Positions 141 to 10,980 of a DNA stretch of 64,000 nucleotides are shown here, one piece after another. The position numbers and the translations under genes were made by a program. The stretch is from Eubacteriales bacterium (GTDB taxonomy: Bacteria; Bacillota; Clostridia; Oscillospirales; CAG-272): NCBI GenBank assembly GCA_045613985.1, contig JAZLCA010000036.1, positions 50,023 through 114,022 of the forward strand, given 5' to 3'. Each line of letters begins with the position of its first letter. Within the stretch, counting starts at the first letter, position 1. Under the pieces are notes generated by a model. It made no database searches, was not told the DNA's origin, and worked only from the letters and a program-made list of their open reading frames with translations.

Positions 141-1112
141 TTATTTCAATTCCTCAATCAACCGCCCGATCTCCTCGCGCGTGGTGATCATCAGATCGTG
201 TCGGTTGTACTCAACCTCCCAGACGTAGGCGTTGCAGGCAAAGCGGATCATACGATAGATCAAGCGGCGGCGGACAGAGGCATCGTCCATGGCAAGCGGG
301 CGTCCGTAGCCCTGCCAAAGCTCGTCACAATACATCCACTCCATGTACGCAAAGTCAAAATCGCTATCGCCCCATACGGCGCGGTCCGTGTCGATAAAAG
401 CAGCAAAGGCGGTCCGATCTGCGTGGATGAGCAAATTGTTGGGGCCAAGGTCGGCATGAATCAAGCGCGGTTCTGTGATCTCGTCCAACACAGAAGTGTG
501 GCGATCCAAAATCTCGCGCATCGCGACAGTCTCCTGCTCTCTGAAAATAGCGTACGGCGCACACGAGGAAAGAATTTGATCCAATTCATCCTTGAGAAAC
601 GTGCTCCAGAGCGCACACCCTCGCCCCTCGGCCACGTTGTACACGTGACCGAACGCCTCACCACGAACGGCGTGCATTTTTGCGATGTTCTGGCCAAGTT
701 CGCGGTAGAGGCGCGAAACGTCGTCGGTTGCATAGGTGTAATCGTCGCGATTGAGCTTGTACGTCACACTGGGCAGATAGCGGACGATCATCAGGTCACG
801 ATCCAGTATCGCCTTACTCGTGTCAATCGCCAGCAACTCGGAGCAAGGCACGCCACGCTCGGCCAGAAGACGGTAAACGATGGCCTCGGCCTGCATCATG
901 TCGCGCTCGAAATGCAACAGCAGGTGGCGGTTGATCGGTCCTACGCGCAAAATCACGTCGCCATAATCGGCGGTCTTAACAAAATAGGTCGTGTTAAACA
1001 AACCGCCCGAAAGTAGTTTGTGTTCCACGGGGGCCGTATGAAGCATCCCTTTTATGATTTCCCGTATCTGCTCGTCCGTCACGGGCGAAAACAGTGAAGA
1101 GCTGATATTCAT
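141..1112 (-). CDS. Phosphotransferase, APH/choline-kinase-like kinase fold
   Basis: HADLGPNNLLI (HxDxxxxN catalytic loop) and DTDRAVWGD. Start moved to ATG 1112 (AAGGAG 7 nt upstream) because the track start at 1169 lies inside the -35 box. Confidence 0.8.
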   Translation of the reverse strand: MNISSSLFSPVTDEQIREIIKGMLHTAPVEHKLLSGGLFNTTYFVKTADYGDVILRVGPINRHLLLHFERDMMQAEAIVYRLLAERGVPCSELLAIDTSKAILDRDLMIVRYLPSVTYKLNRDDYTYATDDVSRLYRELGQNIAKMHAVRGEAFGHVYNVAEGRGCALWSTFLKDELDQILSSCAPYAIFREQETVAMREILDRHTSVLDEITEPRLIHADLGPNNLLIHADRTAFAAFIDTDRAVWGDSDFDFAYMEWMYCDELWQGYGRPLAMDDASVRRRLIYRMIRFACNAYVWEVEYNRHDLMITTREEIGRLIEELK

Positions 1113-1140
1113 GCTGCATCTCCTTTGCTTCGTTGAGAAT

Positions 1141-1169
1141 ATTGTATCACACCAACCAGATTTTGGCAA
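1141..1169 (-). promoter_or_regulatory. Sigma-A type promoter of the kinase gene
   Basis: Minus strand TTGCCA (1164-1169), 17 nt, TACAAT (1141-1146). Confidence 0.6.
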
Positions 1170-1216
1170 GAGTAGCCCCTATAAAAAATTTGCTCTTGTT
1201 TCCCCGTTCTAACATG

Positions 1217-1248
1217 TGGGGGAAACTTCTTTCAAGAAGTTTCCCCCA
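1217..1248. repeat. Perfect 12-bp inverted repeat (hairpin) between the radical SAM gene and the kinase promoter
   Basis: GGGGGAAACTTC (1218-1229) / GAAGTTTCCCCC (1236-1247). No U-tract on either strand, so terminator function is uncertain. Confidence 0.5.
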
Positions 1249-1258
1249 CGCGTCCTCT

Positions 1259-1885
1259 CTATTTATTGATCTCCGTCTTATAAGTCAACTCGTCAAACCT
1301 CGTCACGCCCATCTCGCGCAGGCGCTCCTTGCTGCGGGCGCGATGCTCCTCGGTGTTAAACCCGGGAATGAGCGGCACACGGACAAGTATCTTCTCCGTG
1401 CCGACCTCCTCCACAAGACGCCGCAGATTGTCGAGCACCTGCTCGTTCTCCCGCGTAGTATACTGACGGTAAATGTCGGGATCGGTATCCTTGATATCTA
1501 CAATGTAGCCGTCGATGATATCGGTCGTTGCCTGCACCAAGGACCACGGCACGTTGAGCGACGTTTCGACGTACAGCCGCCAGGATCTGCCGCATATCTC
1601 GCGGAACGCCCTCATAAACGGCACTTGTAAAAGCGGCCCACCGCCGCCAAACGTCACACCGCCGTTCGTGGCAAGGAAATACAGATTGTCGATCTTGACC
1701 TTGTCATAAAGCTGCTCGGGTGTCAGCGTCTCGCACTTGGTTCCCTCTCGCAAAGAGTGGGGGTTGAGACAATAGTGGCAACGCAAAGGACATCCCCAAA
1801 AGGCGGCCAGCGTCGTGACGCCCTCGCCGTCCGTCGTCAGACAATGGCGACGAAAGCCGATAAATTTTGCTGCTCTATCCATCAT
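1259..1885 (-). CDS. Radical SAM protein, glycyl-radical-enzyme-activase-like (PflA/NrdG/YjjW-size)
   Basis: CPLRCHYC (CxxxCxxC), GGVTFGGGGPLL SAM-binding-like motif, 208 aa. Starts 6 nt after the upstream gene's stop. Confidence 0.75.
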   Translation of the reverse strand: MMDRAAKFIGFRRHCLTTDGEGVTTLAAFWGCPLRCHYCLNPHSLREGTKCETLTPEQLYDKVKIDNLYFLATNGGVTFGGGGPLLQVPFMRAFREICGRSWRLYVETSLNVPWSLVQATTDIIDGYIVDIKDTDPDIYRQYTTRENEQVLDNLRRLVEEVGTEKILVRVPLIPGFNTEEHRARSKERLREMGVTRFDELTYKTEINK

Positions 1886-1891
1886 ACGCGA

Positions 1892-2413
1892 TTACGGAAT
1901 GTCCCCCATCGTCTCCTCGGGAGGCATCGGATCGCCGCCAAGCTCTACGTCTTCGTCCTCGTCCTCATCGGGAACGATGATGTCACCGTCCCATTCATCT
2001 AAAGGTTCCCCGGCGGTAGGCTCGTCTTCTTCGGGCGGCATTGGTTTGCCGCCAAGCTCACCTTCGTCATTGCCCTCATCCGGCGCAGGCACGGGCTCGC
2101 CACCAAGCTCGTCTTCATAGCGATCGGGCGGCATAGGATCGCCTCCCGTTTCCTTGGTGAAAAACAGCTCGTCGCATCCTGTGCTTGTCGTCAACGCGAT
2201 AGCTAAACCCGCCACGGCAACCGCCTTGCCCAATTTGGCGCGCTTTTCCAGCTCACGCTCCAGATACCGCACCTCGGCCTCGCACTTGGGGCAAGTACCA
2301 AGGCAATCGCCCTGATGCTTACATTCGGACGTGATAAATTCAACATCGTTGTTCTCTGCGATTTGTCGGCGGATTTCTTTTAAGATTTTACAGCGTTTTT
2401 TTCCTTTAAACAT
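1892..2413 (-). CDS. Hypothetical membrane protein: N-terminal Cys4 domain, one TM helix, acidic GG[DEK]P[MV]P-repeat tail
   Basis: N-terminus MFKGKKRCKILKEIRRQIAENNDVEFITSECKHQGDCLGTCPKCEAEVRYLERELEKR. TM AVAVAGLAIALTTSTGC. Four [TL]GGxPxP repeats. RBS GAAAGGAA. Confidence 0.7.
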   Translation of the reverse strand: MFKGKKRCKILKEIRRQIAENNDVEFITSECKHQGDCLGTCPKCEAEVRYLERELEKRAKLGKAVAVAGLAIALTTSTGCDELFFTKETGGDPMPPDRYEDELGGEPVPAPDEGNDEGELGGKPMPPEEDEPTAGEPLDEWDGDIIVPDEDEDEDVELGGDPMPPEETMGDIP

Positions 2414-2446
2414 ACGCGAATTCCTTTCTGTAAATGGTTACTTCTC

Positions 2447-3451
2447 TTAGGGTTCTTCGGTGACGACAGCGTCCATTAGCGTACCGTCCTCGGCAAAAGT
2501 GAGCGCGAGATATCGGGGTTTGGTTAATTCTTCGTCAACATAGTACCCTTCACTATTAAAGTAGTATCCCCGCTCAATGGTGTAACAGTCGGTGTTATCT
2601 CGAGAGTGCGCGTAGTACTCGTTCCAGCGGGCGCGGATAAACTTACGTGCATCCTCCTCCGGAGTTTTATTTTTCTGAAGGAACTCGCTCATAGCAGTAA
2701 GCAGTTCTTCCTTTTTCGGAAATTCCTGGGCATTGTCGGGACGATGAATTTCGGGGATATACGGCATATCGCCGGTTAAGTAATATTCTTCTGTTTTACT
2801 CTCGTAGCGGGCAGAAAGCAATACACCGGCAGACGAGAATGTCAAGTGCAAAAGTTCGCGCGTTTCCTCCCATGCTTCACTGTCCGACTGATAGGAAATG
2901 GAATAGGTATCCGTAACGGTACCGTCCGACTCTGTGGAGTAGTATAGCTTCTCGTCCCAATGTACGATAAATACGTATCGTTCATCCTCCTCCAAGCATT
3001 GCGCCTCTGCCAGCGCCGTTTTCAAGGCAGTGTAAATGGCACGGTCGGACTGTTTGATAAAGTCCGCGGGAGTAAATGACAGTTGCACGGCGAGAAATTC
3101 CTCGGTGCGCTCGGTCACGGGAATCTGCGGTAGTGGCTCACCGCCAAGTTGTTCTTCCTCGGGTGCCAGGGGCTTTCCTCCGGTTGGTCCGATACCGTCA
3201 AACCAATCGTCGCACCCGACCGTGCTCGTCATCAGCGCAACGGACAAGCCGGCCACCGCGATGGTGCGCCCGAGTTTTTGCCGCTTTTCCAACTCGCGCT
3301 CCAAATACCGCACCTCTTCCTCACACTTGGGGCAGGTGCCAAGGCAATCGCCCTTGTGCTTGCACTCGGAGGTGATGAACTCAATGTCGTTGTTCTCTGC
3401 GATCTGACGGCGGATCTCCTTTAAGATTTTACAGCGCTTTTTGCCTTTCAT
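2447..3451 (-). CDS. Hypothetical membrane protein, paralog of 1892-2413 with a larger exodomain
   Basis: Same Cys4 N-terminus (CKHKGDCLGTCPKC) and TM ending STVGC. Start set at the second ATG (3451), preceded by AAAGGAGAAATTTGG. Confidence 0.7.
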   Translation of the reverse strand: MKGKKRCKILKEIRRQIAENNDIEFITSECKHKGDCLGTCPKCEEEVRYLERELEKRQKLGRTIAVAGLSVALMTSTVGCDDWFDGIGPTGGKPLAPEEEQLGGEPLPQIPVTERTEEFLAVQLSFTPADFIKQSDRAIYTALKTALAEAQCLEEDERYVFIVHWDEKLYYSTESDGTVTDTYSISYQSDSEAWEETRELLHLTFSSAGVLLSARYESKTEEYYLTGDMPYIPEIHRPDNAQEFPKKEELLTAMSEFLQKNKTPEEDARKFIRARWNEYYAHSRDNTDCYTIERGYYFNSEGYYVDEELTKPRYLALTFAEDGTLMDAVVTEEP

Positions 3452-3550
3452 CCAAATTTCTCCTTTCAAACAGGGAAAATTTTTGTTTCACTATATAAGA
3501 CGACAAAAATCCGGAAATCTTCCATATTTTTTGGATTTTTTCAAAAAAAT

Positions 3551-4444
3551 TTATTTTTCTTGCAAAAGCCTTGCGTAAACGTCACGTGCCGTCCGGTCAA
3601 TGCGGGCAACCTCTTCGTCGGTCGCCGTCGTCAAACGTTTGACGCTCGGCTTGCCCCAGATATCAAACAGCCGCGGACCGATCCAAGTCCGATATTCGCT
3701 TTTCTCCAGCACACCGCGCAAAATACTCAACGCTGCCGCCCGAGGCCGCATGAAAATAACCTTCATGGGATATTTGATGATGGCAAAAATGAGGGGCGGA
3801 TAATGTGAGGTGATGTTGGTAAAGGTGATGCCGGGATGGGCGATCGCAAGCGTTGCCTGCTTCTCGTGGCGAAACAACTCATGCAAACCGTACATCAGAT
3901 ATCTTTTGGCGTTGCCGTAGACACGGCTCGCCTTTTTTCTTGTGCGGAAATCGACGTCGCTTTCATCCGTCACCGAATAATTGTGAGCGATGCTACCCAC
4001 CGCGATCACCCGCCCGCCACGTTCGCGCAAACGCGGAAGCAGACGGCAGGTCATGTAATACGGAGAGACAAAATTGATTTGAAACACGTTGTCATATCCC
4101 GTATCACAGATACATCGCGGAATGCTGTAAGCTCCCGCATTGTGGATCAGTACGTCAAATTCGCGTCCCTCCAGCGCCTCGCACGCACAGCGCACCGATG
4201 CCATGTCGGACAGATCCAAGGGGATGCGGGAGAGATGCGCGTCGGGATATTCAGACAAGAGATCACGCTCCAGCGCCTCTGCCTTTTTTTGATTTCGATC
4301 GAGCAAAATCAACTCCGCCCCCAAAGACAGCAAATGCCGGCATAATTCCCTGCCAAGTCCGCCTGTTGAGCCTGTGATAGCCACCGTTTGACCGCGGAGC
4401 AACGTGGCATTTCGCTTGATCCAGCGTTTTACGTTCATGAACAA
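3551..4444 (-). CDS. Short-chain dehydrogenase/reductase (SDR)
   Basis: TGSTGGLGRE (TGxxxGxG), IHNAG, YGNAK (YxxxK). Confidence 0.85.
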   Translation of the reverse strand: MFMNVKRWIKRNATLLRGQTVAITGSTGGLGRELCRHLLSLGAELILLDRNQKKAEALERDLLSEYPDAHLSRIPLDLSDMASVRCACEALEGREFDVLIHNAGAYSIPRCICDTGYDNVFQINFVSPYYMTCRLLPRLRERGGRVIAVGSIAHNYSVTDESDVDFRTRKKASRVYGNAKRYLMYGLHELFRHEKQATLAIAHPGITFTNITSHYPPLIFAIIKYPMKVIFMRPRAAALSILRGVLEKSEYRTWIGPRLFDIWGKPSVKRLTTATDEEVARIDRTARDVYARLLQEK

Positions 4445-4514: not shown

Positions 4515-5138
4515 TCAGCGGATCTTAATAACGGTACCGCCCGTCAATTCGATCATCTTGATCGCCTGAATGGAAAAGCTGTGCGCCTTGACACTCAAAG
4601 GCTTGGTCAACTCTCCGTCAGCCAAAATCTTGATGCGCTTGATCTTTTTGGAAACCAGGCCCTTATGCTTGAGCACGTCGAGCGTGATGTGATCGTGCGC
4701 TTGGAAGGCCTGATCAATATCGCCAATATTGATAAAGCCGCGCTTGCCATCCGTCTTGGGACCTGCTTCTGCCTTAGGAACAACCACCGGCGAGATCTCT
4801 GCATCGTCATCGTCGTCATCGTCGTACTCTTCCGGCTCATCTTCATCTTCTTCAATGACGAAAGCCAGAGCAACTTCATCGCTGAGCATTTCGTCCGCCT
4901 CGATCGCGTTGATGTGATCAACGGGTGCCGGCAAATGGGGCTCCTCCACCTGCTCCTCAGGCAACTCCTCGGCAGGTTCCGGCTCCGGTTCCGGGGCAGC
5001 CCACCGCTCCTGTTCTTCCGGAGCCTGGACTTTGTTCTTTTTGCCGAAATACTCGCTCAAAATGCTTGCGCCAAACGCGCTGATCGCAACGACAGCCAAA
5101 GCATCGACAACACCTACAATGATTGATACAATACCCAT
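4515..5138 (-). CDS. Membrane-anchored protein with a ribosomal uL15 C-terminal-like domain
   Basis: C-terminus IKILADGELTKPLSVKAHSFSIQAIKMIELTGGTVIKIR resembles the RplO C-terminus. N-terminal TM helix plus acidic linker. Start at ATG 5138 with GGAGGAG RBS. Confidence 0.7.
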   Translation of the reverse strand: MGIVSIIVGVVDALAVVAISAFGASILSEYFGKKNKVQAPEEQERWAAPEPEPEPAEELPEEQVEEPHLPAPVDHINAIEADEMLSDEVALAFVIEEDEDEPEEYDDDDDDDAEISPVVVPKAEAGPKTDGKRGFINIGDIDQAFQAHDHITLDVLKHKGLVSKKIKRIKILADGELTKPLSVKAHSFSIQAIKMIELTGGTVIKIR

Positions 5139-5209
5139 AAAAACTCCTCCTGTTATTCTATTTAGAATCTTCGGCGGCATCCGCAACCGAATTTTATATT
5201 CTTATAGTG

Positions 5210-5403: not shown

Positions 5404-6438
5404 TCATACCTGCTTCTCGCCATCCCCGCGGTGCTTTACTGCCGCATAAGTATCCTTTTGCGAGCATCCTGCGCGTCCGCCGCCCGCACAAGCGCAAGCG
5501 CAGGCACACGCGCATCCGCGTCCACCGCTGTGAGAAGAGGTCGCCTGATGCTTGGCACGCGCACTGCTATACCGCGGATTGACGCGCCCGTACACGTGAA
5601 CGTGGTGACCGTATCCGCAGATAAATCCGCGTCCGCGGTGATAGGAAACGTAGCTATCAACAATATATACCTCTGCAACAAGCAACATAATAATGAAGAA
5701 GATTATCGTCATCACCACGCCGAATTTCGTCTCCCACAGCTCGTCGTACACACCGCTATCGTCAAACGGCTCGTAGTCCACCGTGCTCTGACCGTCAAAT
5801 TCATGGGGATCGGTATAGCGCACGTTCATCATCACGTACTCACCGCACGCCATCTCTCCCTGCCAGACGTGATCCCCTTCGGGACCGCCGCTCTTCCACC
5901 GAAATTCGTAATGCTCAACAGGCGTGGCGTTGAACCAGCCGGGGACGAACTCGTGGAAATATCCCTCATCGTCGCGGCAAAGAATCCGCTTCTGATTGAT
6001 CTTGAACGTAAGCTCAAGCACGGCACCTGCGCTGTAAGCGCGGTCGAGGTCGATGCGAACGCCGGTAAAACCATCCTCGTTTTGCTTGGTGATGGTATTG
6101 ATATTGGGGGAATTGTAGGAGCGGTCGATGGTAAACTGCTCGTTGGCCGTTCCGATCTCGATCCAGGTCAGCGGCTCGCTTGCGTCCAGCGGGATCCACT
6201 TCAAATAGTATTCAATGTCCAACGATCCGTCGGCCAAAGGCGTCACCGTCACGCGGTAGTCTTCAATCGTGTCCTGTGGCGTGGGATGATACCATATTGC
6301 AAACAAAATAAGCGCAATCTGTATCACGGCGCATATGCACAGCCATACCGTATTCTTTTTGGGGAAGGTGCGATTGGCAAGAATTTCCTCTTCGGAAAAG
6401 GGATCCTTTTTCACTTTCGGCTCTTTGTTCTTTGCCAT
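5404..6438 (-). CDS. Two-TM membrane protein (DUF2207-like layout) with a Cys/His-rich cytoplasmic tail containing (Cys-Ala)5
   Basis: TM1 WLCICAVIQIALILFAIWY, about 200-aa exodomain, TM2 FGVVMTIIFFIIMLLVAEVYIV, tail GYGHHVHVYG...GGRGCACACACACAGGGRAGC. ATG 6438 is 2 nt after the upstream stop, RBS GGAAAGGAGG. Confidence 0.7.
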   Translation of the reverse strand: MAKNKEPKVKKDPFSEEEILANRTFPKKNTVWLCICAVIQIALILFAIWYHPTPQDTIEDYRVTVTPLADGSLDIEYYLKWIPLDASEPLTWIEIGTANEQFTIDRSYNSPNINTITKQNEDGFTGVRIDLDRAYSAGAVLELTFKINQKRILCRDDEGYFHEFVPGWFNATPVEHYEFRWKSGGPEGDHVWQGEMACGEYVMMNVRYTDPHEFDGQSTVDYEPFDDSGVYDELWETKFGVVMTIIFFIIMLLVAEVYIVDSYVSYHRGRGFICGYGHHVHVYGRVNPRYSSARAKHQATSSHSGGRGCACACACACAGGGRAGCSQKDTYAAVKHRGDGEKQV

Positions 6439-6440
6439 GA

Positions 6441-7823
6441 TTACACGCCTCCTTTCCCATTTTGTGCGCGGAAGGGACACAGCAAGGCCTCATCCTCGCT
6501 CATGCGCCGCAAAGCTTGAGCTCTTGGATGCTTCCAGATGCCCTTCCAGCGATCCGTCAGGATATTACCCAGTCCCGCATCATCGGTCAGCCAGCTTTGA
6601 CAAGGCACGACCGTTCCGTCGGGAGAAATCGCCATATTGCTCAAGGCCGCGCCGCAGGAGGGCACGTTGAGCCCCAGCTCTTGCAATGCTTGCTTGGCGA
6701 TCAGGCCGGGAGAGGTGAAATCCATCTCCATGCCGTGCTCGTCGCAAAAGGCCTTGGCGGCGCGGAGAATGTCAGTCAGCTCTTTTTCGGTCAGATCGTA
6801 CGCCTTGTGATTTTCCCGTGCCGTTCCCGTGCAGATCAGGCCGCTGACGGTAACGAAACGAACGCCCAGCGAGTGAATCAGCGAAAGCGTTGCCATATAG
6901 TCGGCATTGAGTGAGCACAGAGGCGTGTTGACGCTGACGTCCAGCCCGGCATTCACGGCCGACGCAATACCTCGCACGGTATCGGCATGATGCTCGCTCC
7001 CAACCAGCTTGTTATGTATCGCCTCGTCCGAGGAATACAGCGTGATCTGCAAGCTGTCAAGACCGCCCTGCTTTAATTTAGCCGCCAGTTCAGGCGTCAG
7101 CAGCACGCCGTTGGTGTTGACGCGGGTGACGAACCACTTAGCGTATTCCACAAGCTCGGCAAGATCCGCCCTTTGCGTCGGCTCGCCCCCCGTAAAGGTC
7201 AGCATGGGAATGCCTGCCGCGCGCAGTTTATCGATCACACGTCTCCATTCGTCCGTGGAAAGCTCGCTTTTTTTAGCATAGGTCTGCCCTGCGGCGTAGC
7301 AAAACAGACACTTCTGATTGCACTGCCAACAGCCCTCACCGTCCGTCATGGCACGGATCATCAGGTCCATGCGGTGGGGAGCCCCCATGTGCTTGGCATA
7401 AGAGCGAATGGAAAGCTTTTCGATATCCTCGTCCACGTCACCGCCGCGGGCGATTTCAAATATAACGTCCATCATATAGGCAAGATCTTCGCGCACGACA
7501 CGCGCGTCGGTACCGGGATAGACGCGGTGGGTGCGCTTGATGGTGCGCTCAGTCAGCTCCGCGATATCCTTCTGGCTCATCTCTCGACCGTCAAAGACGT
7601 TGACCTCGTCGATCAGCGCCGACAGCAAAACGGACCAGGAATAGCCAAGCGGCAACAGATAATAGCCGTTGAGAATGACAATATATCCCGGATTGCGAAA
7701 CAAACGGGGCGTCGGCGGCACGAGATGAATACGCACCACGCCCGGTCCATCGGGATTGAAGGTACAATGTTTTACGCCCGCCCGCCATGCGCGCAGCTGC
7801 GCCAGTTTATTTTGTAGTCCCAT
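6441..7823 (-). CDS. Radical SAM enzyme with a C-terminal SPASM/twitch-like region and a ~165-aa N-terminal extension
   Basis: CNQKCLFC (CxxxCxxC), TFTGGEP, C-terminal SCGAALSNMAISPDGTVVPCQSW...LLCPF. Start moved to ATG 7823 (GTGAGG RBS) because ATG 7853 overlaps the -10 box. Confidence 0.8.
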   Translation of the reverse strand: MGLQNKLAQLRAWRAGVKHCTFNPDGPGVVRIHLVPPTPRLFRNPGYIVILNGYYLLPLGYSWSVLLSALIDEVNVFDGREMSQKDIAELTERTIKRTHRVYPGTDARVVREDLAYMMDVIFEIARGGDVDEDIEKLSIRSYAKHMGAPHRMDLMIRAMTDGEGCWQCNQKCLFCYAAGQTYAKKSELSTDEWRRVIDKLRAAGIPMLTFTGGEPTQRADLAELVEYAKWFVTRVNTNGVLLTPELAAKLKQGGLDSLQITLYSSDEAIHNKLVGSEHHADTVRGIASAVNAGLDVSVNTPLCSLNADYMATLSLIHSLGVRFVTVSGLICTGTARENHKAYDLTEKELTDILRAAKAFCDEHGMEMDFTSPGLIAKQALQELGLNVPSCGAALSNMAISPDGTVVPCQSWLTDDAGLGNILTDRWKGIWKHPRAQALRRMSEDEALLCPFRAQNGKGGV

Positions 7824-7851
7824 AGCAACCTCACTTTGATTTGATAGTTCC

Positions 7852-7880
7852 ATTATATCTCAATTTCACTTTCGTGTCAA
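7852..7880 (-). promoter_or_regulatory. Consensus sigma-A promoter of the radical SAM / Cys-Ala-tail operon
   Basis: Minus strand TTGACA (7875-7880), 17 nt, TATAAT (7852-7857). Confidence 0.7.
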
Positions 7881-10877: not shown

Positions 10878-10980
10878 ACGTTTCTCCTTTGTTTGAAAGA
10901 ATCGCCCAGACGGTCGGCATTGCTGCTTTGCACTCCCATGCGGTACTCCGCAAATCCGTCAGTCATACAAAGCCAATGGT

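Follow-up and report, generated by a model that had tools for sequence, protein, structure and literature searches.

We analyzed a 64,000-nucleotide stretch of DNA (the window) from an Eubacteriales bacterium of the Oscillospirales (assembly GCA_045613985.1, contig JAZLCA010000036.1, positions 50,023 to 114,022 of the forward strand), in which two adjacent paralogous genes, for proteins here called A and B, are followed by the gene for a small radical S-adenosylmethionine (SAM) enzyme. Both proteins begin with a 60-residue domain containing five cysteines (the Cys5 domain), which runs into a hydrophobic segment; the two elements together are called the module. Our main conclusion is that the Cys5 domain is predicted to be a cytoplasmic extension of a cleavable Sec signal peptide, and that module proteins and the radical SAM enzyme probably form a functional enzyme-client pair built on that extended signal peptide. 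The pair may be a two-component maturation system for exported proteins, in which the Cys5 leader marks the clients of the radical SAM enzyme; we give this second proposal somewhat less than an even chance. The features of the three genes are as follows.

3451–2447, minus strand: gene for protein A, 334 aa, from the open reading frame (ORF) listing, with AGGAG upstream of the ATG at 3451
3272–3451, minus strand: Cys5 domain of protein A, residues 1–60, with C7, C30, C36, C40, and C43
3212–3271, minus strand: predicted hydrophobic core (h-region) and lipobox of protein A, residues 61–80, LGRTIAVAGLSVALMTSTVG-C80, assigned from the cleavage-site signatures of the family
3128–3184, minus strand: motif region of protein A, with TGGKPLA (residue 90) and LGGEPLP (residue 102)
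2759–2779, minus strand: third motif copy of protein A, LTGDMPY (residue 225)
2450–3112, minus strand: exodomain of protein A, residues 114–334, modeled with AlphaFold2
2413–1892, minus strand: gene for protein B, 173 aa, from the ORF listing
2231–2413, minus strand: Cys5 domain of protein B
2174–2230, minus strand: predicted signal peptide and lipobox of protein B, with C80
1895–2173, minus strand: tail of protein B, 93 aa, acidic and proline-rich, with six motif copies
1885–1259, minus strand: gene for the radical SAM enzyme, 208 aa, from the ORF listing
1814–1831, minus strand: DGEGVT loop of the radical SAM enzyme, residues 19–24
1769–1792, minus strand: CPLRCHYC of the radical SAM enzyme, residues 32–39
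1211–1254, minus strand: stem-loop directly 3′ of the radical SAM stop codon, with a 15-bp perfect stem plus four outer pairs

The three genes lie head to tail on the minus strand. A preliminary description of the trio had noted the near-identical N-termini of the first two products, about 60 aa long, and a 208-aa radical SAM protein with the sequence CPLRCHYC starting 6 nt downstream; both observations held. The gap between the protein B stop codon and the radical SAM ATG is 6 nt, and proteins A and B are identical at 55 of 60 positions of the N-domain and 75% identical over their first 109 aa (BLASTP E 1e-54), diverging after that. The mechanically assigned ORF start for protein A is a TTG at 3469, as against the ATG at 3451 used here.

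A profile search with the module against 1.84 billion representatives, clustered at 50% identity, returned 2,860 clusters at E ≤ 1e-3 and 2,295 at E ≤ 1e-10. The module occupied residues 1–81 in almost every cluster, its N-terminal position being fixed. When one genome per species was scanned, it was present in at least 577 species-representative genomes, from Bacteroidales, Clostridia, and Negativicutes; the hosts include Bacteroides xylanisolvens XB1A, B. caecimuris, Segatella copri, Muribaculaceae, and many rumen Bacteroidales, as well as Oscillospiraceae, Lachnospiraceae, and one Selenomonadaceae genome. The N-domain recurs in 2,860 clusters and lies beside a radical SAM gene across phyla, so that what is seen in the window is not a matter of chance.

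Identity of the module across phyla is 65–70%. Invariant or nearly invariant positions of the N-domain are G3, K4, C7, L10, K11, I13, R14, A18, N21, E29, C30, G34, C36, G38, T39, C40, P41, C43, E44, E46, L50, and L54; G61, A67, and G68 are conserved in the hydrophobic segment. The preliminary description had given this domain four cysteines spaced C-x5-C-x3-C-x2-C; the spacing was right (C30, C36, C40, C43), and the count was one short, C7 having been missed. All five cysteines are invariant across the family. The AlphaFold2 model of the N-domain (mean pLDDT, the predicted confidence score, 70) has a helix at about residues 2–20, an extended Cys loop, and a second helix at residues 41–59 that runs into the hydrophobic segment, and the domain is a probable metal-binding helical hairpin. 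Foldseek found no fold match to this model with E < 3, and searches of the PDB with the single sequence and with the profile gave only matches with E > 0.2. The two Cys proteins had no Pfam, NCBIfam, or PADLOC match except for a 15-bit trace of Zn_Ribbon_YjdM below its cut-off. The preliminary description had not recognized the trio as a described system, and we likewise found no description of the module or the pair in Pfam, NCBIfam, PADLOC, the PDB, or the searchable literature; family proteins are currently annotated as "hypothetical" or "energy transducer TonB". Published work on the Porphyromonas gingivalis TonB, the 11 TonB proteins of B. thetaiotaomicron, selenoproteins (by Haft), TonB evolution, and graspetides was considered and proved unrelated to the module.

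The module and the enzyme are linked in most of the loci that we inspected. Searches with the module gave at least 577 genome loci, of which the best 80 were inspected. In 73 of these 80, in Clostridia and beyond, the radical SAM gene lay next to the module gene with the same orientation, mostly with gaps of −20 to +20 nt. In four of the seven exceptions (loci L029, L031, L070, and L077) the module lies within a few hundred bases of the contig end on the radical SAM side, and in a fifth (L073) only about 950 bases of sequence are present on that side. The remaining two (L042 and L074) have several kilobases of flank and no radical SAM gene; these two may represent additional copies of the module, the enzyme being encoded at another place in the genome. 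Searching from the other side gave the same picture: in five of five look-ups that began with radical SAM homologs (57–65% identical), a module gene lay immediately upstream with a 4-nt overlap.

The adjacency survives inversion of the gene order. The module precedes the enzyme in 42 loci, mostly from Clostridia with a few from Bacteroidales; the enzyme precedes the module gene or genes in 29, all Bacteroidales; and both orders occur in two. Each radical SAM gene is accompanied by one to seven tandem module genes with divergent C-termini (L054, L032, and L025 to L027, with seven in L054). When all ORFs of the 80 loci were clustered, the module and radical SAM genes were the only ones conserved across phyla: there was no conserved third gene, no conserved glycyl-radical enzyme (GRE) gene, and no conserved sigma factor or ExbBD gene near the pair. 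The functional tie between module and enzyme that had been proposed from the window is thus supported by neighborhoods in many genomes.

Some neighbors are shared locally. In 19 to 21 Bacteroidales loci, genes for a lipoprotein of about 510 aa (no Pfam match) and a DUF5723 protein of about 475 aa lie upstream of the radical SAM gene, the DUF5723 stop codon overlapping the radical SAM start (for example, L001 2342–5345 and L025 2237–5247). These two genes are absent from Bacteroides (L058) and from Clostridia, and they may represent an extra envelope component in that Bacteroidales clade or mere shared synteny. The APH-type kinase and SDR genes that flank the trio in the window (141–1169 and 3551–4444, minus strand) also flank the pair in locus L090, whose radical SAM protein is 65% identical to that of the window; this synteny is local and confined to the one Clostridia lineage. 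In L090, two genes lie upstream, and the first of them encodes an ordinary lipoprotein without a Cys5 domain. [FeFe]-hydrogenase-like genes occur within a few kilobases of the pair in two unrelated lineages (L005/L006, 7155–8660; L001, 11919–12399), and L005/L006 also have an Rrf2-NifU-NifS cluster near the pair. Proximity to the hydrogenase genes is probably coincidence, because it is not conserved across the 80 loci.

The pair also occurs in mobile contexts. A 93-kb extrachromosomal record of Segatella copri (L097, NZ_CP137558.1, 10192–20437) carries two module genes followed by the radical SAM gene next to relaxase and MobC genes, and in L095 the pair adjoins relaxase, resolvase, and Mrr genes. 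Identity across phyla is high for the enzyme too (52–57%), and this identity, taken with the mobile contexts, suggests horizontal spread of the pair. A phage origin was rejected, no relative having been found in 2.9 million viral contigs.

The radical SAM protein matched Pfam Radical_SAM (8.4e-16) and Fer4_12. Its best NCBIfam match was TIGR02494 (125 bits; cut-off, 174), with the ferredoxin insert of the model skipped; the PFLA model TIGR02493 gave 89 bits against 232, NrdG2 gave 48 against 131, and other activase models scored lower, so that no curated NCBIfam cut-off was passed. The closest PDB entry was Escherichia coli PflA (3c8f, E 2e-14). In an alignment of 65 family members, 202–212 aa long, the invariant residues common to PflA were D19, G20, G22, C32, C36, C39, N41, GG75–76, GGE81–83, D130, K132, and R169. 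A second invariant set was specific to this family: R13, R15, T24, T25, D66, W102, D133, Y139, and Y142, the first four of which adjoin the DGxG loop. DGEG itself is invariant, 95% of members have Thr where DGxGxR has Arg, and CPLRCHYC is present. No Cys beyond CX3CX2C was conserved in 90% or more of the members, and a Pfam scan gave no SPASM match; an extra Cys acting as hydrogen donor or auxiliary-cluster ligand was therefore rejected, and an auxiliary cluster is not expected in this enzyme. From the scores below every cut-off, the residues shared with PflA, the family's own invariant residues, and the lack of extra Cys, we assign the enzyme to a distinct, minimal subfamily of the activase type. 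The preliminary description had called it an orphan activase-type protein, and this stands: no GRE gene lies beside it, and the pyruvate formate-lyase (PFL) gene about 6 kb away in the window (10877–8646) has its own PflA (8722–7922).

The hydrophobic segment had been read as a transmembrane helix ending in a conserved ST(V)GC. Comparison across the family led us to a different assignment. Two sets were used, 130 proteins from the genome loci and 149 diverse representatives. The segment ends in Cys in 105 of the 130 locus proteins. In 90 of these 105 the Cys is at position 79–80, and in 98 it is preceded by G, S, or A at −1, with small residues at −2 and −3, as in the two window proteins (TSTVG-C80 and TTSTG-C80). 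The 24 locus proteins without a Cys at the end of the segment are all from Bacteroidales and have VALA/QQ, VAMA/QT, TAFA/QQ, or SAQ instead (the slash marks the putative cleavage site). Such ends read as AxA sites followed by Gln, a form that matches the Bacteroidetes Q-rule for signal peptidase I substrates (PMC5837995). Among the 149 representatives, 120 had a strict lipobox and 10 had AxA-Q; most of the other 18 had looser forms, such as PGC, NAC, or, in Firmicutes, ANA/GK. Overall, about 80–85% of members have a lipobox Cys near residue 80 and most others have AxA/Q.

Because two alternative cleavage signatures share one place, which would be hard to explain for a permanent anchor but is what a signal peptide should show, the segment is best read as the h-region and lipobox of a cleavable Sec signal peptide, and the Cys5 domain as its 60-residue cytoplasmic extension. 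The basic N-domain and acidic tail are compatible with an N-in, C-out topology. The PROSITE rule PS51257 expects a short basic n-region and a lipoprotein Cys within about the first 35 residues. The module proteins do not have such a short n-region, their Cys lying at position 79–80 because of the Cys5 extension. If the segment is a signal peptide, the mature exported protein would no longer carry the Cys5 domain, which is therefore unlikely to be the permanent membrane anchor or signaling domain that had been suggested for it.

The exported part opens with motifs of the form E-[LIV]-x-G-[DE]-[VIP]-x-x-P throughout the family. The [TL]GG[DEK]PxP repeats of the window proteins, reported as four copies in protein B and two in protein A, are the local form of this motif; the copy numbers held, and the repeats turned out to belong to the whole family rather than to these two genes. 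Looser copies are TAGEPLD and TMGDIP in protein B and LTGDMPY in protein A. The core [LMIFV]xG[DEY][VIMLPA] was present in 112 of 123 tails, with 211 matches against 33 ± 5.5 in shuffled sequences, and a looser pattern gave 351 matches in the representative set against 119 ± 9. The residue at +1, which was left free in the search pattern, was D or E in 199 of 336 matches. Gly is the sole invariant residue of the motif, with a hydrophobic residue at −2. Motif density per 1,000 aa was 10.4 over the tails as a whole and 18.8 over the 70 residues that directly follow the signal peptide, as against 0.71 for the 636 other ORFs in these loci; the motifs are 15–26 times denser in the exported part than in the neighboring proteins.

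What follows the motifs varies. The 93-residue tail of protein B has 35 D+E, 3 K+R, and 16 P. Many members are only 120–145 aa long, with a predicted mature part of about 50 aa that would be an acidic, motif-bearing peptide or lipopeptide. A TonB_C domain is found in 27 of 119 members and CarboxypepD_reg in two or three; most have no Pfam domain. TonB_C members are named "energy transducer TonB" in RefSeq, which is probably an over-annotation, because a lipobox is present in 36 of 45 TonB_C members. The exodomain of protein A, about 220 residues, was modeled as two tandem units, each of helices followed by an antiparallel sheet, with pLDDT > 90 over most of its length; it had no significant fold match in the PDB (best E 9e-3 and TM-score ≤ 0.15, to hot-dog or VirB8-like noise). 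Only 15 homologs of this exodomain were found, most of which, at 312–336 aa, are as long as protein A. A precomputed Pfam domain is present in none of them, and two (P0325 and P0265) are also in the module family.

The mechanism that we propose would run as follows. The Cys5 domain, on the cytoplasmic side directly before the Sec signal peptide, would serve as a leader-like handle, marking variable exported proteins and lipoproteins as clients of one adjacent, dedicated radical SAM enzyme. At the inner membrane face, the enzyme would dock on the Cys5 domain and, before translocation, abstract a backbone Cα hydrogen from the client, the candidate target being the invariant Gly of the motifs that crowd the first 70 or so residues behind the signal peptide. 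The signal peptide, and the leader with it, would afterwards be cut off by signal peptidase II or I. The outcome could be a cross-link, epimerization of a neighboring residue, or something else. The likening to leader-guided maturation comes from the combination of an N-terminal domain, a cleavable export signal, a motif, variable cargo, and several clients per dedicated enzyme. PflA-type activases act on the Gly Cα in a V-x-G-Y type peptide loop. The motif Gly would be the preferred target, since PflA-type enzymes hit hydrophobic-x-Gly and the motif Gly has a hydrophobic residue at −2; that it is the specific target is nevertheless a tentative idea that we consider rather unlikely to be right. 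Invariant R13 and R15 beside the DGxG loop could face the acidic motif, a purely conjectural arrangement compatible with motif targeting. The auxiliary cluster missing from the enzyme may also be contributed by the Cys5 leader. The proposal in full, a metal-binding Cys5 domain that recruits a minimal activase-type enzyme for backbone Gly Cα modification before export, forming a new processing class, is possible and we would not expect it to hold in every part; docking, target residue, chemistry, timing relative to export, and metal binding are all elements that we infer.

Several points weigh against a Cys5-guided maturation of the exported part. Cleavage is a prediction from sequence, and a few members, including the B. 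xylanisolvens protein, have no clear site. No experiment or structural model ties the enzyme to a particular client residue, and in the AlphaFold2 model of protein A residues 67–113 have pLDDT < 50, with the motif region docked on nothing; the role of the motif could be purely extracytoplasmic. The enzyme lacks the SPASM or twitch domain or leader-binding RiPP recognition element (RRE; RiPP, a peptide made by the ribosome and modified after translation) found in known leader-guided radical SAM peptide maturases. As a cytoplasmic enzyme, it would have to act before Sec translocates the segment that comes right after the signal peptide. Finally, with 65–70% identity across phyla and five invariant Cys, the N-domain is far more conserved than typical leaders, and the function or the modification could reside in this domain itself.

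This last point leads to the alternative that survives best, namely that the Cys5 domain itself is the substrate of the radical SAM enzyme or a cofactor-bearing partner of it, a membrane-held Zn or Fe-S domain, the exported tail being functionally separate. The preliminary description pointed in this direction; we regard it as possible and on balance doubtful. Under this explanation the enzyme could form a radical at Gly34 or Gly38 or a Cys-derived cross-link, or the domain could act in trans as a source of electrons or of an auxiliary cluster, or serve to tether or regulate the enzyme. No element other than the N-domain occurs in every member, and its C7, C30, C36, C40, C43, G34, and G38 are invariant or nearly so; its cytoplasmic location would keep it always accessible to the enzyme, which has no auxiliary cluster of its own; the C-x3-C-x2-C spacing and CPxC knuckle suit metal or cluster binding; and two family members carry the JGI label "ferredoxin". 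However, the Gly residues of the Cys loop are equally explained by tight turns around a metal, and neither Pfam, NCBIfam, nor the PDB shows similarity to Fe-S or Zn domains. The alternative also leaves unexplained the conserved cleavage site, the motif-rich exported segment, and the occurrence of up to seven copies with different exported parts per enzyme, and if cleavage does occur, the domain sits on a discarded signal peptide.

It is improbable that module proteins are uncleaved single-pass transducers, TonB-like or similar to zinc-binding anti-sigma (ZAS) proteins, that relay an outside signal to the enzyme or regulate it. ZAS domains have an H-x3-C-x2-C motif, which C-x3-C-x2-C resembles, and the layout of a cytoplasmic Cys domain, one hydrophobic segment, and a variable outside domain fits such a role, as do the TonB_C domains and RefSeq name noted above and the few members without an obvious cleavage site. 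A sigma factor was found near the pair at a single locus, L007, where an extracytoplasmic function (ECF) sigma and anti-sigma pair lies upstream. Against this, about 90% of members show cleavage signatures, among them the 36 of 45 TonB_C members that have a lipobox; Pfam gave no zf-HC2 match at E up to 0.1; the nearby genes include no conserved sigma factor or ExbBD; and most Clostridia members have a disordered acidic tail of about 50 aa and no sensor domain. A TonB function is not expected in Clostridia in any case, because they are monoderm, and a Pfam scan found no TonB_C domain in the window proteins. The B. xylanisolvens XB1A member (L058, 5995–6999) has two TonB_C domains, and a dual TonB_C domain is also a feature of B. 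thetaiotaomicron TonB9 (PMC10350073). If these two, likened here by description, are orthologs, the published tonB9 deletion strain would be a client mutant.

That the enzyme is an ordinary activase of a GRE or anaerobic ribonucleotide reductase encoded elsewhere, with incidental adjacency to the Cys genes, is very improbable: its best profile matches are indeed GRE activases, PflA is its closest solved structure, and JGI names its homologs "pyruvate formate lyase activating enzyme", but it misses every curated cut-off, the PFL of the window has its own PflA, no GRE gene is conserved at the loci, and the adjacency holds in Bacteroidales, Clostridia, and Negativicutes despite inverted order, with overlapping stop and start codons.

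If a Cys5-guided maturation of exported proteins is correct, activase-type radical SAM enzymes would gain a new class of substrates, exported proteins that are not GREs, and signal peptides a new kind of extension; surface proteins of the dominant anaerobes of the gut would turn out to carry a modification, and the over-annotation of TonB in Bacteroidales would be corrected. Export-coupled radical modification would then occur widely in Bacteroidales and Clostridia of the gut and be horizontally mobile there. With its two genes and clients of about 130 aa, the system is small enough to be tested directly. An enzyme with leader-marked clients is a known principle; whether export-coupled radical modification would amount to a new category is a question that we are inclined to answer in the negative, with some reserve.

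The surroundings of the trio were also examined. The stem-loop behind the radical SAM gene has a folding energy of −31 kcal/mol (z-score −6.4; none of 200 shuffled sequences folded as well) and no U-tract, and is likely the 3′ end of the three-gene unit. A promoter scan found no consensus sigma-70 promoter upstream of 3451. Riboswitch control of the trio was rejected: the sole Rfam match in the window belongs to pflB, and there is none at the trio. That match is a ZMP/ZTP riboswitch (pfl motif; 10897–10976, minus strand; 58.9 bits, E 5e-7) directly upstream of the PFL gene, the classic context of this motif. Right after the PflA gene lies a gene for a 470-aa radical SAM/SPASM protein (6441–7853, minus strand) that passes no curated family cut-off, followed by one for a 358-aa protein with two transmembrane segments (5404–6480, minus strand) and an unusual C-terminal tail (...SSHSGGRGCACACACACAGGGRAGC...); these may be a second, unrelated pair of radical SAM enzyme and Cys-repeat substrate. 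A 223-aa protein (4515–5186, minus strand) combines a hydrophobic segment at its N-terminus with a long acidic stretch of low complexity and a C-terminal domain like ribosomal L15/L27A (PF00828, 9.4e-17; TIGR01071, 52.6 bits against a cut-off of 78), an odd architecture for a uL15 paralog.

Four groups of known systems invite comparison. The GRE activases (PflA, NrdG, and the PFLE_PFLC group of TIGR02494) share the small core of the radical SAM enzyme, with the DGxG loop followed by CX3CX2C, GGE, and the D, K, and R residues that bind SAM; the enzyme is close in size to PflA and NrdG and probably acts, as they do, on a protein or peptide backbone. It differs from them in scoring below all cut-offs, in having Thr for the Arg of DGxGxR together with its own R13 and R15, in lacking the ferredoxin insert of PFLE_PFLC, and in having the Cys5 family rather than a GRE as its adjacent partner. 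With the ZAS and TonB proteins, the module proteins have in common cytoplasmic Cys with the x3-C-x2-C spacing, a hydrophobic segment, and an outside domain, which in some members is TonB_C; they differ in having no zf-HC2 match, no conserved sigma factor or ExbBD neighbor, and cleavage sites in most members.

Conserved n-terminal extensions of signal peptides are known from the extended signal peptide region (ESPR) of autotransporters, which is about 25 aa long and has no Cys, and from twin-arginine translocation (Tat) signal peptides with dedicated chaperones. As in those, a conserved cytoplasmic segment lies upstream of the h-region and would be lost when the signal peptide is removed. The sequences are unrelated, neither system is known to have a radical SAM partner, and the extension described here is 60 aa long, structured, with five Cys, and present in both diderm and monoderm bacteria. 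The leader-guided radical SAM maturases of RiPPs (sactipeptides, ranthipeptides, and triceptides, and those with leaders the size of a domain, Nif11 and NHLP) likewise have one radical SAM gene beside one to several substrate-like genes, whose products have a common conserved N-terminus, variable C-termini with repeated short motifs, and a leader removed on export. They differ in the SPASM, twitch, and RRE domains, none of which is in this enzyme; in their leaders, the one here being a five-Cys domain, probably metal-binding, that is carried on a Sec signal peptide and would be removed by the general signal peptidases; and in their substrates, the clients here ranging from peptides of about 120 aa to proteins of 300–630 aa, including TonB_C lipoproteins.

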